64,000 nucleotides of DNA from the IMG/VR virus record IMGVR_UViG_3300005337_000002. One strand, given 5' to 3'. A model generated the notes under the pieces. It worked only from the letters and a program-made list of their open reading frames with translations, made no database searches and was not told the DNA's origin. Of the stretch, positions 8,078-45,870 are shown piece after piece. The stretch's first letter is position 1. Each line of letters begins with the position of its first letter. The translations under genes were made by a program, and so were the position numbers. Origin of the DNA: a virus.

Positions 8078-9469
8078 CTACCAGGTGCCCGCTCGTTTCC
8101 CATCGTTCAAGATCAACTCCGTGTAGAGCCAGACGAGGGCGTCCATGCGATTCGGCGAGGCCATGCCGGGGACCCAGGACGTCATCTCGGCTTCGAGGTC
8201 CGTAAAGACGCCGACATGATGAATCCGCTGCTGCTCGTACTCGGTCGCAATCGGTTCGGCGCGGGTCTGCTTCCCCCGACTGGCATGGACGGTTTTGTAA
8301 TGGACGGTCGCGGTCGCCCGCACGCCCTCCCGGTGCATCTCCCGCGCCACAAACTGCACCACGGTGCCAATCCACTCCCCGCCGTTATTCACTTCGGCAA
8401 TGAGGACATCGGCCTCCAACTCATCATAGAGGGCAATAGCCTGGCGCGCACAGGCTGCGGGGGTTCCACGCATCGAGGCATCCCGCAATACATAACCATG
8501 GCCGTTCGCCGCGATCCCACCGGCAATCATGCCCATCTCGTCGGCCGTCGGTTGCGAGGTGGCTGAAGGATCAAGGGCAATGGCCACGCGCCGCAAGGGC
8601 GGGAGAAACGTCCCAGGTCCGACGCGGGTACAATCCAGCATCACATGCGTCCACAGGGCACCCGGCACGTCTTCGGTGTCTTCCGCCAAAATCTCCTGGC
8701 GATGCGCGAGGACTGTCATGTCCCCCGTAATCTCATCGAGCGCGGTCTCGGAAATGTACGGATTGGCATGACTCGTGAAGTGAAAGGCTTCCCATCGTCC
8801 CGTCGTGTCCGCCTGCGCGGCTTTGTACAGTTTGGCCGTATAGCGTTTGTCACGGGCTTTCGACATCGAGGCGGTTTGGATCGAGGGCGGGGTATACACA
8901 AAGATCGCATCCCCATCATTGTCCAGCAACATCGGGGCCCCAACGACGCCCCAGGCATCTTCCGACATGAGCTGGTGTTCATCGAGAATCAGTATGTCAG
9001 CATAATCCCCGCGTAAGGTGTCGGCGTTCCAGGCAGTCTTCGCGCGGATACGCGTTTCGGTCCCGGGTATTTCGATGAGATGGCGCGTCTCATTTTTGAG
9101 GAGATATTTGGCATCAATCGCGGGCGCCAGTGCCCGCTTCACCTCAAACCAGAAACGATCCACCTGTTCCTGCGTGGGGACGGCATAGAGGATGCGTCGT
9201 CCGTCGAGAAATTTCTCGAGGGCAATCCGTGCGACCCCCACCGTTTTGCCCCCGCGTCGTCCTGCCCGAATGACTTTGCGTTTGGCCGACGATTGGATAA
9301 AGCGCGCTTGCTCGGCATGCGGGATGCGTAACAGCGTCCGCACCTGGGCATGCCAGGGTGGTGGGGCATGGGGATCTGTCTGGGCTTGCTGTGCCTTGCG
9401 ATGGGCGACGCGCAACCCCGCCATGCCCATCAGGGTGGGGTCCGCCAAGCGCGGATCAAGGGTCGGCAC
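8078..9469 (-). CDS. terL: Terminase large subunit
   Basis: Walker A AGRRGGKT, Walker B LILDE, FTSHANPY, nuclease IALDPS, AEVNNGGE, SPNRMDALVW. Confidence 0.95.
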   Translation of the reverse strand: MPTLDPRLADPTLMGMAGLRVAHRKAQQAQTDPHAPPPWHAQVRTLLRIPHAEQARFIQSSAKRKVIRAGRRGGKTVGVARIALEKFLDGRRILYAVPTQEQVDRFWFEVKRALAPAIDAKYLLKNETRHLIEIPGTETRIRAKTAWNADTLRGDYADILILDEHQLMSEDAWGVVGAPMLLDNDGDAIFVYTPPSIQTASMSKARDKRYTAKLYKAAQADTTGRWEAFHFTSHANPYISETALDEITGDMTVLAHRQEILAEDTEDVPGALWTHVMLDCTRVGPGTFLPPLRRVAIALDPSATSQPTADEMGMIAGGIAANGHGYVLRDASMRGTPAACARQAIALYDELEADVLIAEVNNGGEWIGTVVQFVAREMHREGVRATATVHYKTVHASRGKQTRAEPIATEYEQQRIHHVGVFTDLEAEMTSWVPGMASPNRMDALVWLYTELILNDGKRAGTW

Positions 9470-9992
9470 GGTCCGCCTCGGTGAGCAGGAGTTGGGCTTC
9501 CGCCAGGACCTCTTCGACGGTCAGGCCCAGCGCCTCGGCGACCTTCTGGGCCGTCTGCTGGATCGTGACCTTGAGGTCGACGCGGTCTTTGCGGCCCCAT
9601 TGGTCGGGCTTTGAACGCTCAAGATGCCACGCGTCCGCCTGCCAATCGGGTGGGGCAATACGTTCCTCGACACTCGTACTGCCGTCGCGATGGGTTGTCG
9701 TCTTGCGGTAGACGACGGCGCCGCCGCGTCCGGCCTGTTCAATGCGCGCCACGCGCCGCACGGTATCCGTCGCAATCGCTTTTTGGACAGCGGCATGGAA
9801 GCCCTTATAGGGTTCCGTGGCGGGTCGAGGATGCTCCCCCGCGCCACGATTGACCCATTCCAGCACCGTCGCGCGTGCGATCCCCGCAAATTGCGCGGCT
9901 TCGACTAGCGAGACGCCCGCACCCACGGCGTTCACAATCGCCTGCTGTATTTCTTGAGTGAGTTTGGTGACTCGACCGTTCTGGCGTGCCAT
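9456..9992 (-). CDS. terS: Terminase small subunit
   Basis: GRVTKLT...HTH...DWQADAWHLERSKPDQWGRKD; overlaps the terL start. Confidence 0.8.
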   Translation of the reverse strand: MARQNGRVTKLTQEIQQAIVNAVGAGVSLVEAAQFAGIARATVLEWVNRGAGEHPRPATEPYKGFHAAVQKAIATDTVRRVARIEQAGRGGAVVYRKTTTHRDGSTSVEERIAPPDWQADAWHLERSKPDQWGRKDRVDLKVTIQQTAQKVAEALGLTVEEVLAEAQLLLTEADRADP

Positions 9993-10123
9993 GGTGCTCC
10001 CCTGCCCTCCTCGCGCGCATATACATGCTAGTGCGTGCAAAATCCGCTTGGCGACTCGTGTTGCCCACATGAGTATGGGTCATCTTCTCGACTCATCCCA
10101 TCTTCAGGCTTTGCTACCTGCGC

Positions 10124-11038
10124 TCATGCCTCCGTGAGCGGGATCCCCTGCGCCTTGAGGACCGCCCGCAATTCCGGGCTCTTGACCGCCCCATGTTGCC
10201 GCAGCGTGAGCCCATAGTCATCCACCGCCGGCAACGCCGCGAGGTCGATCCCCGGCTTCAGTTGCAAGTGTTGGTCAAACATGCGCCACCGGTCTTTGAC
10301 GACGTGTTGCGGGCGGTGAAAGCGACGCTTGGTCTCGACCAACCCTGGCCAGATGCGCTCCAGCGAGCGGGCCATGCGCAAGCGGCCATCCCCCTGGTAG
10401 AGATCCGCCGTATTCCCCCCGGCGACCTGCATCGTCGTGATCTTGTCGACCATGAAGGCGTTCACCAGCACGGTGCACCAGCCATCCGTCAGGACACGCA
10501 GGCAGAAATCCGTGTCATCATTGTAGCGCTGGCGCCACCCATATGGTAGAGAATTTAGTACTAATGAGCAGGAGTAGATGTGGACATTCAGCCAGTAGGG
10601 TGGGACTGACTTGAGGTCAGCGACGAACATCTTGTAGGCCAGCCCGGCCAGCGCGATGTTCTGATAGCGGTCCACAAAGTCTTCACAGACGCGCAAGGCA
10701 ATCCCCGCCTTACACGGGAGGCGTCGCCCCTTCCAGCGGCGATAGAAGATGCGCATGTTGTCATCGAGTTGCCAGTGGCGGGCTGCCCCGGTCGCCGTGG
10801 CATGCGCTTTGATCCAGTTGCGGGCATAGAGGAGCCCCCCGTTGTTCCGATCCAGGAGGAGCAGGGCGGCGGTGGGAAAGGCCGCGCGATAGGCCTCGGC
10901 TTCTTGCGGCTCCACGACCAGGGAGAAGGGGACGCCATCGAGCAGGAGCCGTCGCATCGTAGATTGGCCAAACTGGCTGCGGCCTTTCGAGGGAATATAC
11001 ACGGGATACCGGGGGAGGACGGCGCCTGATGGTCTCAT
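10124..11038 (-). CDS. TAGT/GREB1-like glycosyltransferase (predicted DNA base modification)
   Basis: YPVYIPSKGR, VVEPQEAEAY, WQLDDN, YNDDTD and GGNT motifs. Confidence 0.8.
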   Translation of the reverse strand: MRPSGAVLPRYPVYIPSKGRSQFGQSTMRRLLLDGVPFSLVVEPQEAEAYRAAFPTAALLLLDRNNGGLLYARNWIKAHATATGAARHWQLDDNMRIFYRRWKGRRLPCKAGIALRVCEDFVDRYQNIALAGLAYKMFVADLKSVPPYWLNVHIYSCSLVLNSLPYGWRQRYNDDTDFCLRVLTDGWCTVLVNAFMVDKITTMQVAGGNTADLYQGDGRLRMARSLERIWPGLVETKRRFHRPQHVVKDRWRMFDQHLQLKPGIDLAALPAVDDYGLTLRQHGAVKSPELRAVLKAQGIPLTEA

Positions 11039-11862
11039 GCGGGGGAGGCCTTGCGCCAATAGGCTGGGCGCTGGTTCCAACACTTCGTCGCGATTTTGAC
11101 ATAGCCGTGCTGGCGGAGGCAACTGTTGAAAGCCCGCGAGGCGCTCGCCCCAGGCACGCGCGTGCCCCCGACCTCATAGGTCTCGAAATGCCCGATGGAC
11201 GGGGCGGTGAAGGTATTGGCGATCAGCAACGCCCGTGGCTGACACTGCGTGAGGAGCGTGACGAGATGGTCCACCGGGGCGGGAATGTGCTCAAAATACT
11301 CGCTGGCAAAGACGACATCGACCGGGGACGGAAGCAGGGGAATCTCCGGCACGACCTGGAAGCCAAACTGGCGTCCCATGCGTTCCGCCACCCGTGTTTG
11401 GGTGAGCCCGGGAAAATTGGTGGCCCAGAGGTCGCAGTGCGGCCAGAGCTGGCGGAGCGCGGCGGTCGTGTAGCCGATCCCGCAGCCGAGGTCCACGACG
11501 CGTGTCACCGGGGCGAGGTGCGCGGCAATCCCGGCAGGCGGACAGAGTTTGGCCGGCAGGAGTTGGGCCAGATATTTGCGGGAATAGACGACCCAGCAGG
11601 CCCAGAGTTCCGCGAGATAATAGTCGGCGTCATAGACGGCCCAGCATGGGGTGCCCTGGCGGAGGGAGGCATACCATTGCGCCTGGAGCCGTTGACCGGG
11701 CTCCGTTGCCAGGCGCCCCTGCCCGCTGCTGCGCAGATAGGCAATGGTCTGCAGTGCGAGGTGCCGCACCGTCGTCACGTCGCGCACGCCCACCGCGGCA
11801 CAGTCCTCGAGAAAATGCGCGAATTGCGGCTGCCACTCACCGGTCAGCAGTGTCGGGATCAT
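11035..11862 (-). CDS. Class I SAM-dependent methyltransferase
   Basis: VVDLGCGIGY and DVVFASEYFEHI; no NPPY/DPPY/PC DNA-MTase motif. Confidence 0.8.
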   Translation of the reverse strand: MIPTLLTGEWQPQFAHFLEDCAAVGVRDVTTVRHLALQTIAYLRSSGQGRLATEPGQRLQAQWYASLRQGTPCWAVYDADYYLAELWACWVVYSRKYLAQLLPAKLCPPAGIAAHLAPVTRVVDLGCGIGYTTAALRQLWPHCDLWATNFPGLTQTRVAERMGRQFGFQVVPEIPLLPSPVDVVFASEYFEHIPAPVDHLVTLLTQCQPRALLIANTFTAPSIGHFETYEVGGTRVPGASASRAFNSCLRQHGYVKIATKCWNQRPAYWRKASPA

Positions 11863-14447: not shown

Positions 14448-14448
14448 C

Positions 14449-27953: not shown

Positions 27954-28037
27954 GCACCGCCCAAAAAAAGTGGGTGCTCACACTTGTTACCATCACCATA
28001 ATCATGTATGATCATGCGCCAAGGAGGATGCGGCTGG

Positions 28038-32314: not shown

Positions 32315-32802
32315 TGGTTGGCCGTCTTATTGCGCTCAGTCTGCTCAGCCTGTTTCCGCTAGCCTGCACCAGTGTCTTGCAAGGCGAACCCGTCGACCTG
32401 GCTGTGGTCGCCACGCCGACGCCGCCCGCGCCCGCCGTACTCCCTCCGCCCACGCTTGCGCCTGGTCCCACGCCGCCTGCTGGCAGCTTTCGTGCCTGGG
32501 TGCCGCGGGAAGTCACAGCGAATGGCGATGTGATCGACGGACACTATCTCCTTGTCAGTACCGCTCCACCCCCTGCGGAACGCCTCGAACCGCCCGTGCC
32601 AATGCCCCGCATTCCGAAACCCACGCGGGCCAAGCCGAAGCCGCAACCCAAGCCTACCACGCAACCACCGTCCCCCACAGAGTCGATGCCGGGGCCGGTG
32701 CGCCCGGAGGGCCAGCCGCCGCTCCCCTTTGTGTGGGGGGATCGGGCGCAGTTGCCGCCTGGCGTGCTCGTGCCAGTGCCCCATCTTGACGGAGGACGCT
32801 AG
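32314..32802 (+). CDS. traV: TraV-like lipoprotein
   Basis: Lipobox PLAC; FRAWVP...NGDVIDGHYL. Confidence 0.7.
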   Translation: MVGRLIALSLLSLFPLACTSVLQGEPVDLAVVATPTPPAPAVLPPPTLAPGPTPPAGSFRAWVPREVTANGDVIDGHYLLVSTAPPPAERLEPPVPMPRIPKPTRAKPKPQPKPTTQPPSPTESMPGPVRPEGQPPLPFVWGDRAQLPPGVLVPVPHLDGGR

Positions 32803-32806
32803 CCCG

Positions 32807-35386
32807 ATGGTCGGCTTTCTGCATGCAGACCCCTATGCCATGCCGCCCTTTGCGCGGTTGTTACCGCACGGGTTGATCCTCAACCAGGCGGCCGGCATTG
32901 GCCTGCTCTCCACGCCGATGCCCCGCTGGAAACGCCCGAGTCTCGCCCTGGGCTGTGCTTGGGATGTCGTGCCGCGCAATATCGATGTCTGTGATGAGTC
33001 GGTCTGTCTCGACATGGCTCGGCTGCATGAAGGGCTTCTTAAAACATTGCCAGTCGGGGCAGCGCTCCAAGTCCTGATGACCATCCTTCCCGCGACGAGC
33101 ATGCCCGCCTGGGAAGCCCTGCGCCGGGAGTGTCGCACTGACGCCGTGGTGCAAGCGCAGTGTGCGGCCATGCAGCAGGGACTCCCCTATCGCGAGGGCC
33201 CCACAATGGGCGGGCTACGGACGGTGCTTACCACGGTCACGGTGCGGCTGCCGATTGCCCATATCCATCCGGCCATTGCGCCGCTCCTCAAGACGGTGCA
33301 GCGCCTTTCTATGGCGCATCGTCCCTCGCTGGCTGATACGCTCACGTCAGCCTTTGCTGAGACCCTGACGCAGCTTGACGGTCTGCGCCGGGCCAGCGCG
33401 GAAACGCTCCAGGCCGCCGGCCATGCCGTGCACGTGCTGTCTGGCATGGATCTTGGGCAGCGCCTCGCGCTGTTGCTGGATCCCTTTGCCCCCGGCACGC
33501 CCGCGTTGCAGGCGGATGAACCCCTCCGCACGCAGGTCCTCACGCGCCCCATGACACAGATCGCGGGTGGCATCCAGGTTGGTGAGGCTACCGTGGCCCA
33601 GGTTCTGTCACTCCAGCGTGCCCCGGCGCATACGTATCCCGGCATCCTCTGTGCCCCGCGTGTGCCTGCCCAGCAACCCGCCATACCAACGGTCGAACCG
33701 CTTGCCCTCTGGCAGGCGCATCCTGGTCCGTTGACCCTCGCGGTGCAGGTGGCCGTCGTGGATTCCGAGGCTGAGAAAAGTCGCCTCAAGCTCAAGCGCA
33801 TGCTGGCAGGCTTGCATGGGAAGGGGAGCGTCGAGAATGCGGCCCTCAAGAAACAGTTAGACAGTCTTCTTGAAACCTTTTTCTTGACCGGTGGCGAGTT
33901 ACACTGGGGGCGGGTCCATGTTGTCGCGTGGGGCACGCCCGCCATCGTCGCCCGCAGCCTGGAAGAAGTGCAGCGCCGGGGGCGCAAGTTGGGACTGGAA
34001 CTACTCGCCGAGACGGGCGCACTTGGCAGTACCTTGTTGCTCCAAACACTCCCGCTGGGGTTTGACCCGGCCTGGCCCGCCGAGCGGGTCATTCAGCGTG
34101 CGCGCCGCCTCCCTGGTGCCCAACTTGCCCATCTGCTGCCACTCTATGGGAGCTTTCACGGCACCGAGACCCCAGTGGTCGCGTATACGAATCAGCGCGG
34201 CGAGGCGGTCGGGGTGCATGTCTTCGATAGTGCGACGAATCCCCATATGATCTGGACGGGGACGAGTGGCGCAGGCAAAACGTTTGGCGTCGCGCATTTT
34301 GCGAATCAGGTCTTGCCGCTTGGCGGGAGCATGGTCATTCTTGATCCACTGGCAAACTACCGGGAACTCTGTGCGGTCCATGGGGGCACCTATGTCAAGC
34401 TGGACTTCAATCACCCGCTGGCCCTCAATCCCTTTGCTGGGGCCCTCGACAATGCCCATGCCGCCTTTCTCACCGCCTCGCTGGCCGAAATGGCCAGTGG
34501 CGGGATTGAGCGGCTGACTTGGGAAGCCTTTAGCGTGTTAGCCACGGCCGTCAGTCACTTGTGTCTGACCTGGGACCGCCAGCGGGGGGAACCGACACTC
34601 GGGCGCTTTGTCGAGGAGGTGCTCCAGGACGGCGGCTTTAGTCCGAAGGATCGCCATGCCCAGCGACTGGCCCAGCAGATTGCGCGCAAACTGAGTCTCT
34701 ACTACGGCACGGGCCAGTACGCCGGGTTTATCGACGGCCCGAATCAGTTTCATGTCGATCCGAAGCTGACCGTGATTGAGTTGTCCCAACTGAGTAAAAC
34801 CTCCGATCTGCAAGCCGTGCTCTTCTTTGCGCTGTTCCATCTTGTGACGCAGTTCTTTGAAGATCCGGTGCGCTTCTATCAGTGGAAATTTATCGTGGCG
34901 GATGAAACGTGGGCGCTCCTCAAGCATGCCCAGACCGCGGATGTGATTGAGAAGATCATTCGGACCTACCGGAACATCAAAACGAGCGCCATCTTTCTCT
35001 CCCAGCGCGTCGAGGATTTTGACTCCCCGGTGGGGAAGGTGATCTTGGGCCTCGTCGATACGACGCTGTTTCTGCAGCCGCAAGAGGGCGAGCTGCCGAA
35101 GATTCAGCGCCTCTTTCAACTGACGGACGCCGAATGCCAGTTGGTGCGGCAGGTGCGCAAGCATGCCGGCTGGAGTAGTGCCTATCTGCGGCTTGCCAAC
35201 GGGCACGGCGGGATGGTGCGGCTTATCCCGGATCGTTTTCTCCAACTCCAGCAAAGCCAGGACAGTGCGATTGCGCAGCGCCGCACCCAGGCCATTGCCG
35301 AGGCCCGGGGCAATGTGCGCGCGGCGATTGCGGCCATGCTTCAGGAAGAGGCCGCTTCGACGTCTGCTCCCTCAACACTTCTATGA
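32807..35386 (+). CDS. traC: TraC/VirB4 ATPase
   Basis: Walker A GTSGAGKT, ILDP..NY, LNPF, Walker B VADETW, FLSQ. Confidence 0.92.
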   Translation: MVGFLHADPYAMPPFARLLPHGLILNQAAGIGLLSTPMPRWKRPSLALGCAWDVVPRNIDVCDESVCLDMARLHEGLLKTLPVGAALQVLMTILPATSMPAWEALRRECRTDAVVQAQCAAMQQGLPYREGPTMGGLRTVLTTVTVRLPIAHIHPAIAPLLKTVQRLSMAHRPSLADTLTSAFAETLTQLDGLRRASAETLQAAGHAVHVLSGMDLGQRLALLLDPFAPGTPALQADEPLRTQVLTRPMTQIAGGIQVGEATVAQVLSLQRAPAHTYPGILCAPRVPAQQPAIPTVEPLALWQAHPGPLTLAVQVAVVDSEAEKSRLKLKRMLAGLHGKGSVENAALKKQLDSLLETFFLTGGELHWGRVHVVAWGTPAIVARSLEEVQRRGRKLGLELLAETGALGSTLLLQTLPLGFDPAWPAERVIQRARRLPGAQLAHLLPLYGSFHGTETPVVAYTNQRGEAVGVHVFDSATNPHMIWTGTSGAGKTFGVAHFANQVLPLGGSMVILDPLANYRELCAVHGGTYVKLDFNHPLALNPFAGALDNAHAAFLTASLAEMASGGIERLTWEAFSVLATAVSHLCLTWDRQRGEPTLGRFVEEVLQDGGFSPKDRHAQRLAQQIARKLSLYYGTGQYAGFIDGPNQFHVDPKLTVIELSQLSKTSDLQAVLFFALFHLVTQFFEDPVRFYQWKFIVADETWALLKHAQTADVIEKIIRTYRNIKTSAIFLSQRVEDFDSPVGKVILGLVDTTLFLQPQEGELPKIQRLFQLTDAECQLVRQVRKHAGWSSAYLRLANGHGGMVRLIPDRFLQLQQSQDSAIAQRRTQAIAEARGNVRAAIAAMLQEEAASTSAPSTLL

Positions 35387-35609
35387 GACAGTGAGGTACT
35401 ATGGCCGCGATTAGCGGGATTCCCACGCGGGCGTTAGCAGAGGCGATTCGGAATCTTCTTGTGGAGCATGGGTATCATCATAGCCTCCGCATCCGGTATC
35501 GCGCGGATCTCCAACTCTGGACGGTGTATGGCTTTGAGTATCGCGGCAAAGATCCTCGCATCAAAGGGTGGGACCGTCGCATGCAAGAAGAGTTAGGGTA
35601 GCGACGCCA

Positions 35610-36080
35610 ATGCATGATCCGCGCCCCGTCAAATTACTCGTACTGCTCTCGCTCCTGAGCCTGTGCTTGCTGGCCGTCTGGTGGGCGTGGCAGGATACGG
35701 GAACGCGGCAGACCATGCTCCTGGCTATCTGGCAGGCCGAGCAGCCGACGACGCTGCCCCCCTCGGCACTCCTGGACCAGGCCCAATGGCTGGTCCTGCA
35801 CCGCTGGGGACACCTGCAAGGGATGGCGCTCCTCCTCGCCACGGCGCTCCTCCTCGGCGTGTGTGAGGGTAGCTGGCATCGGGCGCGCGATCCGCTCGGC
35901 GGTTTTCGCCTGACGCGCTGGACAGTCGGGGTCCTCGGGCTGGCGCTCGGGGTGGGGGCGGTCGCGGGGTATCTGTGCGCCCCGGTGGTCTTGCCGCTGG
36001 GATGGTGTGCAGGGGGATTCGCGGGACTGCTAGGGCTGGTAGGGTTTGCGCTAGCGCACGGCAGGCCATACGTCAGCTAA
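35610..36080 (+). CDS. Transfer-region membrane protein (DUF4400-like)
   Basis: Several TM segments; LGVCEGSWHR. Confidence 0.55.
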   Translation: MHDPRPVKLLVLLSLLSLCLLAVWWAWQDTGTRQTMLLAIWQAEQPTTLPPSALLDQAQWLVLHRWGHLQGMALLLATALLLGVCEGSWHRARDPLGGFRLTRWTVGVLGLALGVGAVAGYLCAPVVLPLGWCAGGFAGLLGLVGFALAHGRPYVS

Positions 36081-36193: not shown

Positions 36194-37093
36194 ATGTCTA
36201 CCGCTATTGTAGCACGTCGCTGCCCGCTCTGCATTAATGATCCTCGCGAGTTTCATGTAAGTTCAAAGCCCTATACAGAGGATTTAACTGGGCAATCATG
36301 TGAACGACTTTCCGTCAATCACTTCGTTGGCTCGAATCGTCATCGGCAAGCCTATTGGTGTTGCTCCTGCCTCTGTGGCGGATCGGCTGTCATCCTTGCG
36401 TATCGCTTCATTCATAAGAAAACACGCTCCTGCGGATGTCTTGTTAAAGAGAATGTCAACGCTGGGCAATTTCAGTCAACGCACGGCATGACCGATACGC
36501 GCATTTTCAAGATATGGAGCGGCATGTTGACGCGATGCTATAACGAAAAGAGTCTTGATTATCCGCGCTATGGGGGTCGTGGGATTACGGTGTGTGAACG
36601 CTGGCGCACCTCCTTTGCCGCGTTCTATGCAGACGTCGGCGATCCGCCTGATGGGATGACAATGGATCGCAAGGACAATATGCGTGGCTATGAACCTGAC
36701 AATATCAAATGGAGTACACCGCTGGAGCAAAGTAATAATAAGCGGAACAACGTCTATCTCGACTATAACGGTGAACGTCATACGATCGCTGAGTGGTCAC
36801 GGCTCATCGGTATTTCCGCTATAACCTTATATGCCAGGAAAGAGCAAGGATGGTCTGATGAAGCTATCCTCACGTCTCCGCTTCGACCTTGTCGCCCACG
36901 AGGCAAGATTGTGCGCACGGGCATCACTCTCACGTTTGACGGAGAAACGCATACCGTTGCGGAATGGGCACAGAAGCTCGGTATGGGCGAAATGACCTTG
37001 CGTTCTCGTCTCAAACACGGGATGCCGCTCACCGAGGCATTAACGCGACCTGTCGCTCCCTATCGTGGAGCCCACCGCCAGAAAGGGCACTAA
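36194..37093 (+). CDS. HNH-type homing endonuclease inserted in the transfer operon
   Basis: CSCLCG, SCGC, W..M..RC, YGGRGI.VCERW, DRKDN..Y.P.N..W, two T.AEW helical repeats; lower GC. Confidence 0.85.
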   Translation: MSTAIVARRCPLCINDPREFHVSSKPYTEDLTGQSCERLSVNHFVGSNRHRQAYWCCSCLCGGSAVILAYRFIHKKTRSCGCLVKENVNAGQFQSTHGMTDTRIFKIWSGMLTRCYNEKSLDYPRYGGRGITVCERWRTSFAAFYADVGDPPDGMTMDRKDNMRGYEPDNIKWSTPLEQSNNKRNNVYLDYNGERHTIAEWSRLIGISAITLYARKEQGWSDEAILTSPLRPCRPRGKIVRTGITLTFDGETHTVAEWAQKLGMGEMTLRSRLKHGMPLTEALTRPVAPYRGAHRQKGH

Positions 37094-37094
37094 C

Positions 37095-38357
37095 ATGACG
37101 GGGTTCTCACCATACAGCGTTGTTCTTGTGAGTGCCATAATGCTTGCACTGCCAATGTCCGTCGCTGCAGATCTCTGGGATACAGCGCGACGGTCGATAA
37201 AAACGGATACGTATGACACTTCGGGCTACGGTATGCGAGGTGGGGTGAATCTCTCGACCGGCACACAGCCAAGTAGTACGACATTATTCCGTGCCACAGG
37301 GCATGTCGGCGGGACGTGTGGCGCGTTCGATTTTGCTGGCAGTCTCAAGGAGGGACTTGAGCAAATTCCTGCGATGATCGAGGGGCTCAGTCAGCAATTA
37401 TTGACTAATATGCCCATGCTTATTCTTTGTTGGGCTAGTCCTACTAGTTGTGACCTCGCGAAGCACTTCCAGGGGCTCGTGTCTGCGGCGATCAATGCCC
37501 GCTATGCCAGTTGTCAGTCCAGTCAGAATGCCGCGATGTATGCGGGGTTACGCTTGCGCGCGGGCGAGGTCTCGCGCTGCTTAGAGGAGCATGCCAATGC
37601 TGGGGATACCATCTCCGAAGCCCTGCGCACCTGCAACAGCGATCCGTCTGACCTACGCGCCCCCGATGGCTCCCGCCGGGTCGAGGTCAATCTGGTCAAG
37701 GATACCCTCGCTGCAGCCGGCGCCAGTACCGAGACGCAAACCCTCGCCCGTGGCTTGCTTGGCGAAGTCACCTTGCGCGCGGGCCAGGGCTATAATGTCG
37801 ACTATAGCCATCCCCAAGCGGCCCTCATGAGCCGCTACGAGAGCCATAAGGCGGATGCCGATGCGGCCCTGCGCCAGGCGGTGACGGAACTGCAACAGAC
37901 GGGGGCTATCTCACCCCAGACGCTCCAAGACGCCTCTGTCCCCGGTCAGTCCCTCCCGCGCGCGGCCCTCGATGCCCTCGTGACGCTCCAGGCCGACCCG
38001 GTGCGCTACGAAGCGCTCCTCGGCAAGCTCAGCACCGGCATGGCCCTGACACGGCTCACGTGGGACTGTAGCGAGTTGCAAGAGACGCTGATGGCCGCCG
38101 CCCAGGGCAACGCGCACCTCAGTGACGAAGAGCGCCGGGTGCTGGAGCAGAAGTATCAGTCCGTGCAGCGAGCATTGGCGCAACTCATGGCGAAAACGGA
38201 GGTGCTGGAGAAGAGCTATCAACCGGCGGTCGATGCCCTCTTGCGGGAATACACGGCCACGCAAGAGCAGGCCATCCGCCTCGGCATCACCGCCCCGACA
38301 CTCACCACGCCGCCCATGCCCTTTCGCGGGGCAGGGCCAGCGGGCTATGGAAGGTAG
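37095..38357 (+). CDS. Exported conjugative protein (TraH / PFL_4711-like)
   Basis: Signal peptide, TCGAFDF, PMLILC...P..CDL...ASCQ. Confidence 0.65.
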   Translation: MTGFSPYSVVLVSAIMLALPMSVAADLWDTARRSIKTDTYDTSGYGMRGGVNLSTGTQPSSTTLFRATGHVGGTCGAFDFAGSLKEGLEQIPAMIEGLSQQLLTNMPMLILCWASPTSCDLAKHFQGLVSAAINARYASCQSSQNAAMYAGLRLRAGEVSRCLEEHANAGDTISEALRTCNSDPSDLRAPDGSRRVEVNLVKDTLAAAGASTETQTLARGLLGEVTLRAGQGYNVDYSHPQAALMSRYESHKADADAALRQAVTELQQTGAISPQTLQDASVPGQSLPRAALDALVTLQADPVRYEALLGKLSTGMALTRLTWDCSELQETLMAAAQGNAHLSDEERRVLEQKYQSVQRALAQLMAKTEVLEKSYQPAVDALLREYTATQEQAIRLGITAPTLTTPPMPFRGAGPAGYGR

Positions 38358-38362: not shown

Positions 38363-39859
38363 ATGGATTTTCTGGTGTTGTCGCTCCCGGAGGCCGCATT
38401 TTTGTACACTGGGATTGCCCTGCAGGCCATGCTGCGCTCGTCAAAACTTATCGCCCTTGTCTATGCGATCATCACGATCTCGGTCTTCGTGCTCCTGTGG
38501 CGCGGCCTCGGCTCGGTCTGGTTCTGGAAGCCGGTGGCGGGCTATCTCGGTACGACGGGCCTGATCCTGGTGCTCTTTTGGCCGGAAGCGCTGCGGTTTG
38601 GGCATCTGTCGGCCCGCGCCACCGATGCCACCCAGATTGCGTCCTATGCGGCGAGTCAGGACCCCGACGCCGAAGTCGTGACGGCGGCGGAGACGCAACT
38701 GGTCCTGCCCGCGCTCCAAGACCCGGTGCTCGTCCCTGTGGGTTTTCGCCTGCTCTTGCGGATGACGACGGGGCTCTCCCTCACCATCGGGCGCATCCTG
38801 AATGACCAGGAACATCGCACGTTTGGCATCTTGACATCGATGGGGTGGCTGCTCGGCGTTGAACTCACCGCGCCCGTCAGTAACGCGATTCAGGACTGGA
38901 CTCTTAACTGTTTTACCCCCATCTGGACCACGACACTGGAAGCCCAGCAAGCCGTGACCGCGCACGATCTCTTGCCGTGGGATAACTCCCCTGTCGCGCA
39001 AGCGCTGAATACGCGCGAGGTGCGCCCTGGGGCACAGAGCGGGATTACGTGGCTGCAAGGCAGTACGCCGACTGCCACGGTGAAATGCGATACCTATCTG
39101 GCGGCGGTTGAAAGTGACACGCAAGCCTGGCTACGACAACTGAAGAGCCCGCGGGGGACCCCGCTGCTCCAAGTGTTTGAGGAAGACCTGGGGCTGACCC
39201 CGATCCAGCAAGCGCGCTTTCTGCTCTACCGCGAGATCCTGCGGACCATGCAGGGCCCCGTCCCGGCACCCAGCCTGCTGGGCACCTACGCCGCGATTCG
39301 GGGAGCAGGCATTGCCGGCAGGGCACTGGATCAAGGCAGCTTCACGGGCATCGTGGGGCTCCTCAGCGGCACCTTCTCCTGGGCGAAGACGCTCTTTGCC
39401 GCCGGGCGGGGGGCGGGCGCGGGGGTGAGTGCGGAATTTCAGCGCACGGTGGAGGGCTTGAGTCACTACGTCGGCTTTGCGGTGCTGCTGACGTGGGTCG
39501 CGCCCTACGTGCTCGGCATCGCGAATCTGGTGCTCGTGGGGCTGTTTCCGCTGCTGCTGCTCTTTCTGCTCATCCCCGGGCATCAACTGGAAGGGTTGCT
39601 CCTCTATGTCGCCATCTTGCTCTTTACGACGGCGGCCCCGCTGTGCTATGCCCTGGTCGATGTGTCGCAGCGGCTCGCGGGCAGTCTCGCACCCCAGTCC
39701 ACGGATGCGGTCTTTGGGGGCTTGAGCAATGGCGCGACGGCCTTTGTCTGGAGTACGATGGCGACGATTGTGGGCCTGCTCGTCATTCCCGTCACGCTCG
39801 CGTGGCTCTTGTTTAAGACGTTTCGGGCGGCCAGCAGTCTGTGGCGCCCTAGCATCTAG
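38363..39859 (+). CDS. traG: TraG N-terminal-like mating-pair membrane protein
   Basis: N- and C-terminal TM clusters; periplasmic DW..NCF.P...C segment. Confidence 0.65.
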   Translation: MDFLVLSLPEAAFLYTGIALQAMLRSSKLIALVYAIITISVFVLLWRGLGSVWFWKPVAGYLGTTGLILVLFWPEALRFGHLSARATDATQIASYAASQDPDAEVVTAAETQLVLPALQDPVLVPVGFRLLLRMTTGLSLTIGRILNDQEHRTFGILTSMGWLLGVELTAPVSNAIQDWTLNCFTPIWTTTLEAQQAVTAHDLLPWDNSPVAQALNTREVRPGAQSGITWLQGSTPTATVKCDTYLAAVESDTQAWLRQLKSPRGTPLLQVFEEDLGLTPIQQARFLLYREILRTMQGPVPAPSLLGTYAAIRGAGIAGRALDQGSFTGIVGLLSGTFSWAKTLFAAGRGAGAGVSAEFQRTVEGLSHYVGFAVLLTWVAPYVLGIANLVLVGLFPLLLLFLLIPGHQLEGLLLYVAILLFTTAAPLCYALVDVSQRLAGSLAPQSTDAVFGGLSNGATAFVWSTMATIVGLLVIPVTLAWLLFKTFRAASSLWRPSI

Positions 39860-39873
39860 CGGAGGAGAGCGTC

Positions 39874-40608
39874 ATGGCCTTTGAGGAAGTAATTTTTGGA
39901 CAGTGCCGACTGATACGCGGGGATTGCTATGTCCTGCTTGCCGACATACAGGCCGATGCACTGATTACCGATCCGCCCTATGGGATGGCCTTCAATTTTC
40001 GGCAGGTAACGTCCCCTGACCTTCGGCGCAAGAGTCACCCCCCCCATGGACGCCATAGCTACAGTGCTGGTCGGGCATGGCAGGACAATATCCACGGCGA
40101 TGCATCCCCGTTCGATCCCACACCCTTCTTGTGGTTTCCACAGATCATTTTATGGGGTGCGCACCATTATAGTGCTGCCTTGCCGTCGAGCCCAAGCTGG
40201 CTCCTCTGGGACAAGCGTGTGGGAACCGCCTCAGATCATCATGGGGATGCGGATATGGCATGGACCAATCTTGGCGGCTGTATTCGCGTCCACCGGCAAC
40301 TCTGGCGAGGGCTCATTCGGGCAGGTGAGGAAAATGGGAGTCGTGACGGCAAGCAGCATCCAGGACAAAAACCGTTAGCCCTTATGCGGTGGTGTGTCGA
40401 AAAAACACGAGGGATAGTCTTTGATCCCTTTGCCGGATCGTTCACCACGGCTCTCGCATGTTTCCAACTGGGACGACCCTGCATTGCTATCGAAATTGAC
40501 CCTTATTATTTTGACATAGGCTGCCGTCGTCTCGAAGCCGCCTACGCCCAGCTAGGGTTGTTTCTTCCGCAACCCATCGTACATCCCACGCAAGCAACCT
40601 TATTCTAA
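39874..40608 (+). CDS. Beta-class N4/N6 DNA methyltransferase
   Basis: ITDPPYG...HPGQKP...VFDPFAGS...IEID. Confidence 0.92.
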   Translation: MAFEEVIFGQCRLIRGDCYVLLADIQADALITDPPYGMAFNFRQVTSPDLRRKSHPPHGRHSYSAGRAWQDNIHGDASPFDPTPFLWFPQIILWGAHHYSAALPSSPSWLLWDKRVGTASDHHGDADMAWTNLGGCIRVHRQLWRGLIRAGEENGSRDGKQHPGQKPLALMRWCVEKTRGIVFDPFAGSFTTALACFQLGRPCIAIEIDPYYFDIGCRRLEAAYAQLGLFLPQPIVHPTQATLF

Positions 40609-40796
40609 AGGAGATGCTCGATGTGGCAATTCTGTGTGCTTCTGTTTCTGCTCGCCGGGCTCGTGGCCCTGCTCCCCAATCTCTGCCTGCTCGGGATGTT
40701 CCAGGGCTGTCGTGCCTGCCATAGTCTCATGCGGCGCGGGGCGACGAAGTGCCCCCACTGTCATACGCCGTATCGCACACCTGCCAAGGTGGCCGC

Positions 40797-42074
40797 ATGA
40801 GGGGTCTCCTGCTCGCCTGCCTGCTCTTCCCTACCTCGACTCTTGCGGGGTCGTTCATTCTCAGCTGGGACACTCCGCTGGACTGGCAACCGCGCGTGCA
40901 GTATCGGCTCCAGATCGTCACAACCCAGGCCGGGCGGGCGGTCCAACAGACCCAGACCCTTGCCGCCTTCCCGGCAGGCCAGTGCGCCCAGTGGCCGGAT
41001 GCCCAGCGGACGCCAGAGAGTCTCTGTAGCGAGGTGTGCCTTGAACCAGGGGATTACTCACTCACGCTCCAAGCCGCGACAGATCTGGCGAGTGACTGGT
41101 CAAACGTGCTCGATGTCGATCTGACGAGTACCGGCCCGTGTCATCCCGTGCCGGTCGTGCCGGTGCCCCCCCAAGCCAAGAAACCGATCCCCATCCCGCT
41201 CGTGCCCATCCCACTCCCGACAGCGCCCGCACCGTCAGCGCCGACTCTGACGTCGCTGCTCAATATGGGCTGCGTGAGTTGGAAAGTGACGGGCGTATGC
41301 ATGTGTAACCCCACCACGCCCTGCCTCACATTAGAATATTGGGAACCCCGCTATGTGGTCGAGACGGTGAAATCCCCCGGGGATACGGTCGTTCCGCTCC
41401 TGGGCGATGTGTTGCGCGCCGTCCTCAGTACCACCGGCGCCCCAGCCATCGGCGGCGGCGGCAGCGCCAATGCGAGCGGCAGTGGGCACACGAACCTGTC
41501 GTACAATGAGACGCATATCTACAGCCTGCCCAACCTCTTCGGCGGTCCCTGTACCGCCTGTGCGCCCAGCGGCGGCTTTGGTCTGAACTACGCGAGTGAA
41601 CTGGATGCCCCCGGCTGGCGCATCGATGTATCCGTGCCAACCCCCTATGAGTTGCTCTTGCAGGTGGGGACCTGGGGACGGCTCTACCCACGGTCGGGCA
41701 AGGTCATTCATGGCTCGCCACCGGTCGCCAGCGCACTCACCGCCGTGCGGGCGCTCGACATTATACGCCAACCCATCGGCGTGCCGCCCAACGTCGATGC
41801 GCATGTCGTGACGCAACCCGGTGATGCCGGGACCCCCGCGTGCATGCAGATGGGCTATCCGCGCCAACTCCCCTGCTTCCCCGCGGGCACGCCGAATGCC
41901 CTCTGGGAAACGGGCACGGGGAGTCTGACGGGGCGGTACGCATGGACCATTTGGATCAAGCGGAGTTGCTGTACGAACCCTGCGACGTCGACCTGCGGCA
42001 TTGCGACCCCTGGAATAGGCGGCACCGGCCAGAACGTGTGTCTCTTGCCGCAACTCCCCAGCGTCTTACCTTAA
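40797..42074 (+). CDS. traU: TraU-like protein with extra N-terminal beta domain
   Basis: CVSWKVTGVC, YWEP...VE, NYASELD..GWR, TWGRLYPRSG, YAWTIW...CC. Confidence 0.85.
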   Translation: MRGLLLACLLFPTSTLAGSFILSWDTPLDWQPRVQYRLQIVTTQAGRAVQQTQTLAAFPAGQCAQWPDAQRTPESLCSEVCLEPGDYSLTLQAATDLASDWSNVLDVDLTSTGPCHPVPVVPVPPQAKKPIPIPLVPIPLPTAPAPSAPTLTSLLNMGCVSWKVTGVCMCNPTTPCLTLEYWEPRYVVETVKSPGDTVVPLLGDVLRAVLSTTGAPAIGGGGSANASGSGHTNLSYNETHIYSLPNLFGGPCTACAPSGGFGLNYASELDAPGWRIDVSVPTPYELLLQVGTWGRLYPRSGKVIHGSPPVASALTAVRALDIIRQPIGVPPNVDAHVVTQPGDAGTPACMQMGYPRQLPCFPAGTPNALWETGTGSLTGRYAWTIWIKRSCCTNPATSTCGIATPGIGGTGQNVCLLPQLPSVLP

Positions 42075-42090
42075 CACGAAAGGACTGTCT

Positions 42091-43710
42091 ATGCCCTTGC
42101 CCTTTGCGGTTCGCTGGCCCGTCTGTGTCCAGCGCTGGCTCGGCCTGCGCGTCTCGCGTCTGCCGGGCCGTCTTGCCACATTTGGCGTCCCGTGGCCGTC
42201 CCTGCCCCGAAGTGCTGCCAGCTATGAGCGCCTGTTCTACCAGACCTGTGAGGTCCGCATTCCCGCCACGGCGCATGGCTTCCATTGCCCGTGGACCACG
42301 CTCAGCATTGAAGTCTTTCTGTGGGCGCCGGAGGACCAACGTTGGGTCGAGGCCTCGCTCGCCGTCAACATGGGGCTTGCGCCTGACCGTACGCTCTTTG
42401 TGCGGTTCCATACCCCCCAGAGCGGCGTCGTGCGCCTCCTTGCCGTGCGCGGGCAACTGCATGGCCCGCTCCATACGATGCTCCCTGGGATGCCTGGGGA
42501 ACGCTAGAAAGAATGGTCTATGCAACTCACACTTGATCTGTCTGAGCATGTCATTGAAACCTTGCGAACGTTGGCGATCCAGCGCCATTGCACGACCCCC
42601 GAGATCGCGACGGCGTTGCTTACGCAGGCGGCTTCTGTCGATGCGCCCTCCCTTGATGCCGCGCTGCCTGCCAGGGATGCGGGCATTCTGCTCGATCCAG
42701 CCGCACGGGCTTTACTTCGCGAGCACCATCTGAGCCCAGCCGATCGCGCTTTCCTGAATCACGTGATTGATCTTTGGAATGTCTACGCGCTCGGGAGCCA
42801 ACAGTCTCCCGTCAGTTTCTTCGCGCAGTTTCTCACGGACCAGGCGTGCATGATGATGGCCACGCAGTATCCTGGCGATCTGGACAAGATTGCACAGGCG
42901 GCAACCGTTCTCACGCGCTTGGTCGAGCAATTACTTTGGGCGAAGATCACCCTCACGAATGGCTTTCGTCGCCCACTGCCGGAGGAATTGTCATGATATG
43001 CTCCCGCTACGTACTTGCCCTCGGTCTACTGACACTCGCGACGCCTGCCGTCCATGCCCAACCCCTGCCCTGTGCCCTGCAGGCCTTCTTTGAGTCCGTC
43101 TGCCCCGAGGGGTCAACGTCTGTTGCGCCTGTCCCTGCGGCCCCGCCCGCGCTCCTGCCGCCCCTGTTTCCGAAGGAGACGCTCGCGCGGGATATTCCCC
43201 CGCTGATGGTGACACTGCTCGATGCCCCCACCCCCGAGAACGCTCGCGCCTTCCAGGCCTGGCATCGGCGCCGACTGGCCCGTATTCAGGAGGTCAATCG
43301 TCTCCTGCAATCCCTTGAACCTGTCCCCCAGAAAGAGGTGCCTGATGCCCAGCTCCCGCGCTGAGAAAGCGGCGCCCGCCCGGTGGACTGCCTGGCAGGC
43401 CGCGCGTCGTGCCCAGGGCGTCTTATCCGCCCGAGCCGCCGCCCAGGACTACACCGCGCTCCAGGTCCAACCCCCGCTGCGCGCCACGTTCTTTGTGATG
43501 CTGGATCTGCTGAGTGCCCGGCATAAGTGGCTGCAGCGGCTCGCCAGGCTGCACGCCGATCCGGCCTTCACCGCGTCCCTTGAGGAGGTGGAGGTCGCGT
43601 GGCAGCGGTGGGAGCAGTGGACCCGGCACTTTGCGGCCACGCTGACCCATCTCACCGCTGATCATCCGACGGGCCTGCCGCTGGAGGAGGACCCGCCCGA
43701 TGCCGACTAA
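42091..43710 (+). other. Four small transfer-region genes: 42091-42507, 42520-42996, 42993-43364, 43345-43710
   Basis: Closely spaced or overlapping ORFs. 42993-43364 has a signal peptide and LDAPTPENARAF, like the TraF N-terminus. Confidence 0.55.
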
Positions 43711-45520
43711 GCTGCTCGTGCGCGCCATACTCCTGGCGAGTCTCGCATGGCTCTGGCTGTGTGTCTCTTTCGTCGTCCCGCTGCCGCCCGCGTATGCGGC
43801 TGCTCCGCTCCAGACTCCGGTCGACCTGCTGGCGCTGACCTGGCTGGTCTGGCGCCTCCTGCTCCTGGATCGCACCTGGCATACGTGGCGCGCGTGGCGG
43901 GTCTCGCCTGCCCCCTGGGTCCTTGCCGCGACCGCCTCCCCGTGTCTCACAGACGGCCTGCTGCTCGGCGAGGCGTTTGCGTGGACGACCGCCCAGACCC
44001 ACGCCCTCGAAACCTTCCTCGTGGATGAAGAGACGCTCCCGGTGGCGACAAGCGCCCGCGGCGGCCATCCGGCCCTCCATGCCGTTGGGGCCGGCGCTGT
44101 CCAGCTCCTCCCGCTCCCGTGGTCGGAACTCGTCGGCCAGGTCGGGGTCCTGGGGACGACCCGCAGCGGCAAGTCCACACTGCTCGAACTCCTGATGACG
44201 CACGCCATCCGGGCCCGCCACGGCCCGGTCATGGTGCTGGATCCCCGCGGCAGTCGGACGTTGCTTGCGCGCTGTGCCCTCGAAGCCTACCGGATTGGGC
44301 GGCCCTTTGCGGTCATCGCCCCCGCGTTCCCGGCCCAGTCGGCCACGATGAATGTGCTGGACACCGCGACCTCCCCCGTGGAAGTCTCCTCGCGCATCAA
44401 TGCCCTGATGCCCAGCGGTGGGGGGCGCACGACGGATCCCTTCTTTGAACAATATCCGCTGGCCCTGATTGAGCGGATCGCCACCGCCCAGCAGGCGCTG
44501 GGCCAGCCCTGGACGCTCGAAGGGCTCTACAAAGCCTCGGTCCTGCCGCAGCATGCCGAGCGCTTGCTCATGGACTACCTCGTGCATCTGGGCTGCACGC
44601 GCACCCCCACGCTGCAGCCGATGAAGACCGAGTATTTTCGGAAGCATATGCATGACCTCACTGCCGATGCCCTCATTGCGGATCAGGAGCGCAACCGGGA
44701 CCACTTTGCCAAGGTAACGGCCAATCTCATTCCCGCCTTTCGCGGCGTCGTGCATGCCCCGTTAGGGCCGCTCTTCTCGACGGTCCCCGGCGATCTCACC
44801 TGGCAGACGATTGTCGAGAAGGAGATCGTCGTGTATGTGGCCCTGGCGAGTATGCTGCTTGGCGACATTGCGAACCGCATCGGGCGCGTCATCCTGCAAG
44901 ATCTCATCGGCTATCTGGGCCGGCGGGACGCCTATGCGGATGTGCGTGCCGCCGTGCCGATCACCGTGCTGATTGATGAGGTGGGGGATGTCGTCTTTCC
45001 GCTGTTCACCAATGCCCTCAATAAAGGTGGCGGGGCGAAAGCCCGGTTTGTCATTGCCATGCAGTCCCATGCGGATCTCGACGCGAAGGTAGGCCGGGAG
45101 GAGAGCCGCCGCATTCGGGACAACCTCAATACCCAAGTGACCTTTCGTCTGACGGATGATCGCACCGCGACGGACGTGGCCGAGGGGTATGGCGTCTGTA
45201 CAGTGCAGGTGCCGGAGACCGGGGTGGGACTGACGGTGGGCGGTGGTGGGGGACTGACCGGCAGTGCCCATCGGCGGCTCGTGCAGCGAGAGGTACCGCG
45301 CGTGCGGAGCAACTGGCTCAAGGCGTTGCCACGGGGCGAGGCGTTTGTGCGGCTCAAGGGTGAACTCTGGAAAGCGCGCATCCCCATGCTTACCCCAATC
45401 ACCTCTGACGAACTCGATATGCTCGGACTCACGACACTGTGGAACAGTCTTGCGCCACAGTCCCCTGCTTCTCCAACAGAAGGGAGTGATGTATGCGACG
45501 ACTCAGTAGTCTCTTGCTAG
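43700..45520 (+). CDS. traD: Type IV coupling protein (TraD/VirD4)
   Basis: Walker A GTTRSGKS, VLDPRG, Walker B LIDE, LNKGGGA...AMQS. Confidence 0.92.
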   Translation: MPTKLLVRAILLASLAWLWLCVSFVVPLPPAYAAAPLQTPVDLLALTWLVWRLLLLDRTWHTWRAWRVSPAPWVLAATASPCLTDGLLLGEAFAWTTAQTHALETFLVDEETLPVATSARGGHPALHAVGAGAVQLLPLPWSELVGQVGVLGTTRSGKSTLLELLMTHAIRARHGPVMVLDPRGSRTLLARCALEAYRIGRPFAVIAPAFPAQSATMNVLDTATSPVEVSSRINALMPSGGGRTTDPFFEQYPLALIERIATAQQALGQPWTLEGLYKASVLPQHAERLLMDYLVHLGCTRTPTLQPMKTEYFRKHMHDLTADALIADQERNRDHFAKVTANLIPAFRGVVHAPLGPLFSTVPGDLTWQTIVEKEIVVYVALASMLLGDIANRIGRVILQDLIGYLGRRDAYADVRAAVPITVLIDEVGDVVFPLFTNALNKGGGAKARFVIAMQSHADLDAKVGREESRRIRDNLNTQVTFRLTDDRTATDVAEGYGVCTVQVPETGVGLTVGGGGGLTGSAHRRLVQREVPRVRSNWLKALPRGEAFVRLKGELWKARIPMLTPITSDELDMLGLTTLWNSLAPQSPASPTEGSDVCDDSVVSC

Positions 45521-45870
45521 CGCTGGTCCTAGTCGGGTGTATGGCAACCGGGACGAAGGTGACGGAAGTCCAACTCGAGCAGTTTCAGCCGGGGTACAGC
45601 ACCTATCAGGACGTCATTGGAATGCTCGGCCCGCCGAATCAATCGACCCTACACAGTGATGGCACGCGCGAGGCGATCTATACCTACACGCAGATGCAAC
45701 TGAAGCCGCTGAACTTTGTGCCCATCCTTGCGGCTTTCACTCAAGGGAGTACCGCCGAAACCACGACGGTGACGTTACTCTTTGATGCGCGGGGGATGCT
45801 TGCCAGCTTCAGCGCGGCCCAGGGACAGACGACGGTGGGGACGGGGTTCGTGTCAGGGGGGCGGCAGTAA
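45493..45870 (+). CDS. BamE/SmpA-like lipoprotein
   Basis: Lipobox LVGC; G.ST..DV...LG.P. Confidence 0.75.
   Translation: MRRLSSLLLALVLVGCMATGTKVTEVQLEQFQPGYSTYQDVIGMLGPPNQSTLHSDGTREAIYTYTQMQLKPLNFVPILAAFTQGSTAETTTVTLLFDARGMLASFSAAQGQTTVGTGFVSGGRQ

Follow-up and report, generated by a model that had tools for sequence, protein, structure and literature searches.

Phage-plasmids such as P1, N15 and VP882 carry a full virion module and plasmid-typical genes on one replicon, and are regarded as using virions instead of conjugation. A 2025 review sets transfer in virions against conjugation as two alternative strategies of plasmids, virions giving a large burst with a narrow host range and host death, and conjugation a low cost and a broad range with a need for contact (PMC12282955). 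Any conjugation-related gene at all is found in 6 of 222 E. coli phage-plasmids (PMC10123127). Here we analyze a 64,000-nt window of a viral genome, IMG/VR record IMGVR_UViG_3300005337_000002, in which terminase genes share one element with a type IV secretion system (T4SS) and a type IV coupling protein (T4CP). The genome resembles phage-plasmids in joining a full virion module and plasmid-typical genes on a single replicon and in its recombinase, whose family is widespread on plasmids. It is unlike them in its conjugation genes, and the partition protein ParA (AAA_31) was not found here.

The conjugative prophage Phi1207.3 of Streptococcus pyogenes offers a second point of comparison. It was reported to move between cells in matings, but type IV secretion, a relaxase and a coupling protein all go unmentioned in the text of the paper (PMC4260502), whereas in the present genome, for which transfer is a proposal, a whole T4SS and T4CP are encoded. 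The expression “conjugative phage-plasmid” is used only in passing, in two preprints, and, as far as a non-exhaustive literature search shows, no account exists of a conserved lineage of phages equipped with a full T4SS.

Among conjugation systems, the closest are those that combine an MPF_F T4SS, a MOBH relaxase and an SXT-type TraD, as in the SXT/R391 integrative and conjugative elements (ICEs) and in IncA/C plasmids and their relatives. The locus described here shares their TraE-TraK-TraB-TraV-TraC ... TraG_N ... TraU ... TraD order and their top NCBIfam matches (TraC-F-type, F-type TraB and SXT_TraD), and a sister ICE-like contig has the relaxase TraI_2 between TraU and TraD. It departs from them in that the phage cassette scores below curated cut-offs, has no MOBH that we could find, lies within a tailed-phage genome and includes no recognized TraF, TraN or TraW. 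Relaxases of a different kind, the tyrosine-recombinase-like MOB_M enzymes, are documented and systematically escape standard profiles (PMC8152469; bioRxiv 10.64898/2026.01.13.699239). As detailed below, the phage–conjugation hybrid is real, conserved and old, and is without a known relaxase. We consider it very probable that the genome belongs to a large tailed phage and that, for a long time, selection has maintained in its lineage a complete T4SS and T4CP controlled by a helix-turn-helix (HTH) regulator of their own.

A complete tailed-phage genome around the window

All positions are given in the numbering of the window, that is, the whole stretch of 64,000 nt, which corresponds to bases 14,842–78,841 on the minus strand of one contig of 141,598 bp (45% of the genome). 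The IMG/VR record is that of a virus with direct terminal repeats and a CheckV completeness of 100%, and the first 50 bases of the contig are found again 99 bases before its end. In what follows, G000 denotes this genome, G001 and G002 are other IMG/VR viral contigs and L-numbers denote relative loci. The genome is that of a complete 141.6-kb tailed dsDNA phage (Caudoviricetes), with terminase, portal, capsid and tail genes on one replicon.

The large terminase subunit, TerL (8078..9469, minus strand), matches phrog_2 (6.5e-23) and Pfam Terminase_6C (5.1e-05). Its Walker A motif (G70–T76), its Walker B residues (D163, E164) and the acidic residues of its nuclease (D300, D354, E359, D443) are invariant in an alignment of nine homologues with 56–68% identity. 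A total of 5715 TerL homologues were retrieved, all of them metagenomic, with top identities of 74–77%. The small subunit, TerS (9456..10070, minus strand), matches phrog_4102 (3.5e-23). A preliminary description of the window, prepared from its letters alone, had reported both subunits with intact motifs, and the PHROG and Pfam matches and invariant motif residues bear this out. It had likewise reported that TerL meets an unrelated gene head-on with no portal next to it. This is indeed the arrangement: a plus-strand gene (7239-7661) converges on the 3′ end of terL, and replication and nuclease genes come after it. A paralogue of 35% identity immediately past the right edge of the window (64008-64286) marks the small convergent gene as real.

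The same description had found no head genes, which holds for the window, where none of the open reading frames (ORFs) scanned encodes a portal, capsid or tail protein, but not for the genome. Profile scanning of the flanking sequence for portal and capsid genes, the check it had proposed, places a portal (phrog_146, 1.6e-58) 2.3–3.9 kb outside the left window edge, ~10.4 kb downstream of terL and on the same strand. The portal is followed by head-morphogenesis, head-decoration and capsid-like (phrog_771/264) genes, and farther on by genes for a 1110-aa tape-measure/transglycosylase protein, a minor tail protein, a tail fibre and a protein of 1871 aa. These virion genes are co-oriented, and head and tail together take up ~60 kb of the same complete contig. 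A full head and tail module of this size on the same contig refutes the suggestion that the element is satellite-like (PICI, P4-like or cf-PICI) with its own packaging motor.

An F-like secretion system with a TraD-type coupling protein

An HTH regulator opens the 18.7-kb cassette and a XerC/D-like tyrosine recombinase closes it; between them are a divergent F-like T4SS, a TraD-type coupling protein and a lipoprotein. The T4SS and coupling protein lie on the plus strand at ~28.0–45.9 kb, and all genes in this section are on that strand; from the pilin-like gene through TraD the distance is ~18 kb. Scores of the T4SS hidden Markov models (HMMs) are all below their curated cut-offs. Within this limit, profile matches to TraC, TraB, TraU, TraG_N and SXT_TraD agree with the preliminary description, which had recognized a near-complete T4SS and a coupling protein on the element.

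The ATPase VirB4/TraC (32807..35386, 859 aa) is matched by NCBIfam TraC-F-type (7.8e-62) and by Pfam P-loop_TraG, and G488, G490 and K491 of its Walker A motif, together with D699/E700, are invariant among 17 homologues. The TraD-type coupling protein (43700..45520) is matched by NCBIfam SXT_TraD (5.2e-73) and by Pfam TrwB_AAD_bind, TraG-D_C and T4SS-DNA_transf. P-loop and Walker B-like motifs are present in the consensus of the T4CP alignment, and TraD homologues on plasmids are just 27–29% identical.

Reading along the operon, a Cro/CI-type HTH regulator (28008..28307; HTH_3, 8e-12) lies directly upstream of the T4SS genes, with same-place homologues in L027, L032 and G001. The next gene (28788..29393) encodes a pilin-like membrane protein with hydrophobic segments, a candidate TraA/VirB2 whose start is probably internal to the ORF, and it is kept upstream of TraE in L028, L032, L027 and G002. 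A small membrane protein (29243..29680, true start internal) is probably TraL/VirB3-like, given its size, position and transmembrane segment, and has homologues of 34–42% identity in L028, G001, G002, L032 and L027. It is followed by a TraE-like protein (29662..30288), whose homologue in L027 matches Pfam TraE, and by a periplasmic protein with a signal peptide (30335..31057), presumed TraK-like from the F-type gene order and kept in position and homology in all relatives. TraB/TrbI/VirB10 (31061..32314) is matched by Pfam TrbI (9.7e-14) and NCBIfam F-type TraB (1.7e-08). Between it and VirB4 lies a TraV-like lipoprotein (32314..32802) with a signal sequence and lipobox, 42–58% identical to the gene in the TrbI–VirB4 interval of L028, L055 and L027.

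Downstream of VirB4, a conserved 170-aa T4SS membrane protein (35568..36080) has same-position homologues in L028, L032, G001 and G002. A TraH-like periplasmic protein (37065..38357), kept in all relatives, is a lead from the ESM Atlas only and not an HMM match: its nearest clusters (score 0.96) are labelled “integrating conjugative element protein” and carry PF06122 TraH on 12–26% of members. The TraG_N/VirB6-like protein (38363..39859; Pfam TraG_N 3.5e-05, below the curated cut-off) is also kept in all relatives. Inside the operon, between TraG_N and TraU, lies an N6/N4 DNA methyltransferase (39874..40608; Pfam N6_N4_Mtase, 2.5e-16). By BLAST, no gene of the relatives is homologous to it, and other, unrelated short genes fill that slot in them. 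TraU itself (40749..42074) matches Pfam TraU (9.4e-24) and NCBIfam TIGR03756 (3.5e-11). A small conserved protein (43222..43710) overlaps the T4CP start, and its C-terminal ~100 aa share 32–39% identity with the product of the gene that immediately precedes the T4CP in L055, L032 and L027. The last conserved gene of the plus-strand cassette (45493..45870) encodes a BamE-like lipoprotein (Pfam BamE, 4.6e-04) with a lipobox and with homologues after the T4CP in L027, L032, G001 and G002.

The remaining cassette ORFs show no Pfam or NCBIfam match to TraF, TraN, TraW or TrbC, of which divergent homologues are possible. The set found (TraC, TraB, TraE, TraK, TraL, TraV, TraU, TraH and TraG) is that expected of a predicted MPF_F-type T4SS, TraK, TraL, TraV and the pilin being assigned by position, size, signals and conservation, and the system is a deep branch of F-like T4SSs. 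Periplasmic parts of the apparatus carry Sec and lipoprotein signals, which indicates a diderm host.

The cassette recurs in other phage-type contigs

The same cassette, from the HTH regulator through the F-like T4SS, TraD-type T4CP and BamE-like lipoprotein to the XerC/D-like recombinase, is present on six further metagenomic contigs. Gene order is shared by a 134-kb JGI contig, contigs of 70.9 kb, 27 kb and 35 kb, G001 (98.9 kb) and G002 (122.7 kb). VirB4 has 32 homologues among 5.8 billion proteins, and those on record are 43–56% identical. An IMG/VR scan with the single VirB4 protein returned nothing, and a scan with a VirB4 profile returned two further viral contigs, G001 and G002. No close VirB4 was found in GenBank phages, and a megablast of 22 kb against PLSDB plasmids gave zero matches.

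The three viral genomes differ in capsid family. G001 (88% complete) encodes a TerL (phrog_675), a portal (phrog_145), a scaffold and a major capsid protein (phrog_212) of its own. The capsid of G002 (77% complete) represents a third family (phrog_1005), and G002 also contains several homologues of tail-region genes and the cassette. Neither the TerL nor the portal of G000 was found in G001 or G002. G001 and G000 have in common TerS, much of the tail module and the whole cassette; the 1871-aa protein is 51% identical between them over 1509 residues, and the TerS homologue of G001, 47% identical, adjoins a TerL of another family. Because TerS is homologous but TerL, portal, scaffold and capsid fall in other PHROG families, the head module was exchanged, with a break just after terS (G001, L044:3626-14277). 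G001 and G002 have little in common except the cassette. Between G000 and G001, cassette proteins are 24–46% identical and tail proteins 31–58%.

Further genes of the 134-kb JGI contig are Arc, HNH, DUF5131 and AcrVA2-like ones, as well as beta-helix and LamG genes with homology to a tail-region protein of G000; the part of the contig examined reaches these tail-like genes, and head genes are not within that part. Its genes of the AcrVA2-like anti-CRISPR family are close to the cassette, at L030:1607-3470, together with an HNH gene and DUF5131. The 35-kb contig carries RecT and a beta-helix gene. In this JGI contig, which carries P0019, an IS605 OrfB/TnpB-like gene sits between the TraK-like gene and TrbI and no TraU is called; its cassette may be a decaying copy.

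In a maximum-likelihood tree of VirB4, G000, G001, G002, the 134-kb and 70.9-kb contigs and one more sequence form a clade with support of 100/99. It is nested in a clade of 12 sequences (99/97), and the other members sampled there share its architecture. The ICE-like L028, on a 64.7-kb contig, falls in a separate, short-branch clade; there, a TraI_2 (MOBH) relaxase between TraU and TraD is followed by SSB, DUF932, a PF00589 integrase and UmuDC. Judged by gene order, protein identity and this tree, the cassette is a conserved, long-standing and monophyletic module shared by a set of large contigs that are phage or phage-like. The preliminary proposal of a conjugative phage or phage-plasmid thus stands in its anatomical part, since phage and conjugation genes are on one element and the cassette is conserved in phage-type contigs; conjugation itself is taken up below as a proposed function.

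Proposed function and the adjoining recombinase

We propose that the cassette serves contact-dependent transfer of phage DNA to neighbouring cells, a function that we regard as plausible with a little less than even confidence. Cells carrying the phage as a lysogen, or in an excised or plasmid form, would build an envelope-spanning T4SS in a diderm host. Through it the phage would pass its own DNA by contact, as a second route besides virions that would be independent of receptors and lysis. Nicking would be performed by the recombinase next to the T4CP, in the manner of MOB_M relaxases, or by an unrecognized protein, the MOBH relaxase of the sister ICE clade being absent. The methyltransferase in the operon would fit a pre-methylation of the transferred strand. 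Two features hint at DNA as the substrate: the coupling protein belongs to the TraD type known from DNA conjugation, and a DNA methyltransferase lies within the operon. Taking anatomy and function together, we hold this to be the best explanation, and we see the case for and against it as evenly balanced.

The candidate nickase is a XerC/D-like, two-domain tyrosine recombinase of 290 aa (45872..46744, minus strand), with Phage_int_SAM_2 and Integrase_1 matches in Pfam (9.5e-15 and 7.4e-14), whose gene is convergent with the end of the T4SS operon. Its catalytic R143, K168, H227, R230, H278 and Y287 are invariant across five homologues, and such a recombinase follows the T4CP in all phage-type contigs with that region visible (6/6). 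The MOB_M relaxases TcpM of pCW3, MobK of pIGRK and MpsA of SGI1 use tyrosine-recombinase chemistry at oriT and are often annotated as integrases. The G000 enzyme is similar to them in keeping the catalytic set and, among elements lacking a known relaxase, is invariably found together with a T4CP. The catalytic set does not discriminate for MOB_M, because it is common to all tyrosine recombinases. The G000 recombinase also differs, by description rather than by sequence comparison, in having a core-binding domain, whereas MobK, TcpM and MpsA are without one, the MOB_M type being described as devoid of both arm- and core-binding domains (PMC8152469). Its role may include, or be confined to, integration of the element or resolution of multimers.

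A 53-nt non-coding element, 83% identical between its two copies on distantly related cassette contigs, lies beside the recombinase gene at L030:9566-9617 and at 83831-83883 of G002; no copy was found in G000 or G001. Its orientation is fixed relative to the T4SS, though the recombinase gene is inverted between L030 and G002. It could represent a site of recombination or a segment of an RNA.

Several observations weigh against transfer by this route. A six-frame HMM search of the whole genome (PF07514, PF03432, PF08751, PF03389) detected no MOBH, MOBP, MOBF or MOBQ relaxase, with MOBV, MOBT, MOBC, MOBB and MOB_M not covered by it. An oriT was likewise not identified, in an analysis made without an oriT library. 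The recombinase retains the N-terminal core-binding domain (Phage_int_SAM_2) and has weak full-length similarity to XerC/XerD. Its family is common on small non-mobilizable plasmids, which would fit an ordinary resolvase or integrase, and a family member positioned at the GC drop bordering the Entotheonella island (see below) fits an integrase or resolvase as well. Neither ParA (AAA_31) nor a PF00589 integrase was found in the genome, other partition and replication-initiator families lying outside that search. The VirB4 branches are long in the phage clade and could reflect an altered function. Finally, every contig examined is without a cultured host.

Relatives of the T4SS without a canonical relaxase

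The lack of a recognized relaxase extends to the relatives. The TraI_2 of the sister ICE-like contig had no tblastn match in the genome, MOBH, MOBP and MOBF were not found in G001 and G002, and the slot between TraU and TraD holds no TraI_2 in any of four other phage-type contigs (0/4). Outgroup copies of the T4SS, with ~35% VirB4 identity, are located in chromosomes of uncultured Entotheonella and in other metagenome-assembled genomes (MAGs). On a closed Entotheonella chromosome (L062–L064, ~3,157,000-3,190,300), an ICE-like island carries the T4SS, topoisomerase III, ArdC and a T4CP 44% identical to that of G000. It also carries a group II intron reverse transcriptase, a DnaN-like clamp and, at a GC drop, an Integrase_1 recombinase of the same family as that of G000. 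The island has a GC content of ~0.62, against ~0.55 in the chromosome to its right, and the recombinase lies 11 kb past the T4CP, where GC falls from ~0.60 to ~0.52. Phage genes of the kinds searched, including a TerL homologue near the T4SS, were absent, marking the island as ICE-like and not a prophage. A type I-E CRISPR-Cas locus lies ~30 kb to its left.

None of the five MAGs with an outgroup T4SS contains MOBH, MOBP or MOBF anywhere (0/5), and for this reason the T4SS family seems to work without a canonical relaxase, using an unrecognized DNA-processing enzyme. A more specific version of the transfer proposal would have a dual-mode lineage, equipped with both capsids and an F-like T4SS, in which the recombinase is at once integrase and a new type of relaxase, and whose ancestry lies in an ICE family without a relaxase, from uncultured bacteria such as Entotheonella. 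We regard this version as tentative and rather doubtful.

Alternative explanations

Four other accounts can be given of the cassette, and they are taken here in falling order of likelihood: a role other than DNA transfer, a conjugative backbone that captures phage modules, a recent ICE insertion and a chimeric assembly.

The strongest of these holds that a relaxase-less T4SS and T4CP works without moving the phage genome. Protein export, or pili and adhesive contacts, could then aid virions through aggregation, deliver effectors or exclude competitors. A known relaxase is indeed absent from every phage-type copy examined, VirB4 has long branches in the phage clade, and neighbouring phage genes encode beta-helix or fibre-like proteins. 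Against this, the T4CP is of the DNA-conjugation TraD type and has a TraG-D_C domain, and no effector-like cargo was recognized. The missing relaxase does not by itself imply a non-DNA role, because canonical relaxases are also missing from the outgroup islands, which are ICE-like and carry ArdC and topoisomerase III. We therefore consider the account unlikely, if still a credible competitor to DNA transfer.

In the second account, a conjugative plasmid or ICE lineage has repeatedly captured phage head and tail modules and uses particles as a gene-transfer-agent-like or occasional route. The cassette is the most widely shared block of G000, G001 and G002, in which the capsids (and the terminase and portal where seen) differ in family; the recombinase family is typical of plasmids; and the nearest named relative of TerL is annotated as a gene-transfer-agent terminase. 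Such a lineage would nonetheless have to accommodate ~60 kb of co-oriented virion genes on what CheckV rates as a complete virus with terminal repeats. Much of the other content is also phage-like, namely HNH, DUF5131 and AcrVA2-like genes, early-gene arrays and DNA modification by a TET-associated glycosyltransferase (TAGT), and a plasmid partition ATPase (ParA, AAA_31) was not found. Homologous tail genes are common to G000 and G001, and the swapping of head modules is ordinary phage mosaicism. We judge this account quite improbable.

A recent integration of an ICE into an ordinary phage or prophage is very improbable. The preliminary description had named this outcome, with head genes just outside the window, as the one that would overturn its reading. 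The head genes are in fact there and a recombinase stands at one end of the cassette, but neither att-like repeats nor a compositional step accompany them. We found no convincing att-like direct repeats flanking the cassette; a 28-nt repeat has three copies, each of them within an ORF (20190-20486, 45493-45870 and 62132-62614). The genome has a GC content of 61%, and neither GC nor tetranucleotide composition shifts at the cassette. The cassette is, moreover, in at least six other phage-type contigs, with 24–56% protein identity and a monophyletic VirB4, and the contig is a free, complete viral genome and not a chromosome. With no repeats, no compositional step and a cassette as diverged between related phages as their tail proteins, the cassette is not a recent ICE insertion.

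An assembly chimera of a phage with a plasmid or ICE, conceivable for a metagenomic assembly, is exceedingly improbable: the same association of cassette with phage or phage-like genes occurs on independent contigs from other samples, composition is uniform, and TerL and VirB4 are each listed on three contigs in the protein database, the longest of 141,640 bp.

Significance of a retained mating apparatus

About 18 kb, or ~13% of a capsid-limited genome, is kept for a complete mating apparatus, and this conserved retention therefore points to strong selection, either for a second route of transfer or for a new viral use of a T4SS. Should transfer prove true, phages could bypass receptor-based resistance, the phage/plasmid binary applied by classifiers would blur, and these genomes would offer a natural system for studying a T4SS without a canonical relaxase.

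Neighbouring genes and minor features

Between terL and the portal, a replication and nuclease block (924..7301, minus strand) encodes a PD-(D/E)XK nuclease, a T5orf172 protein, a DUF3987 primase-helicase-like protein and a primase-like protein, with matches to Pfam PDDEXK_11, T5orf172/MUG113 and DUF3987 and to a PHROG DNA primase. On the other side of the terminase genes, TAGT (10124..11122, minus strand; PF20691 8.7e-43, phrog_842 4.8e-37) lies directly upstream of TerS, and suggests that virion DNA may be hypermodified with a glycosylated hydroxymethyl-base. A ParB-like protein is encoded nearby (11837-12664); the genome has two ParB_N-like proteins, of the nuclease/methylase-associated kind. 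A DUF5131 gene is located at 15494-16315 on the minus strand.

The paralogue of the small gene that converges on terL belongs to a second small-gene array, and a further pair of paralogous small genes lies at 18094-18246 and 61367-61585. In an Rfam scan of the whole window, the remaining candidate ribozymes fell below their gathering scores, and one Twister-P5 ribozyme (21537-21607, plus strand) exceeded its own, with 50.7 bits against a gathering score of 37.6; it lies inside the early small-gene array.

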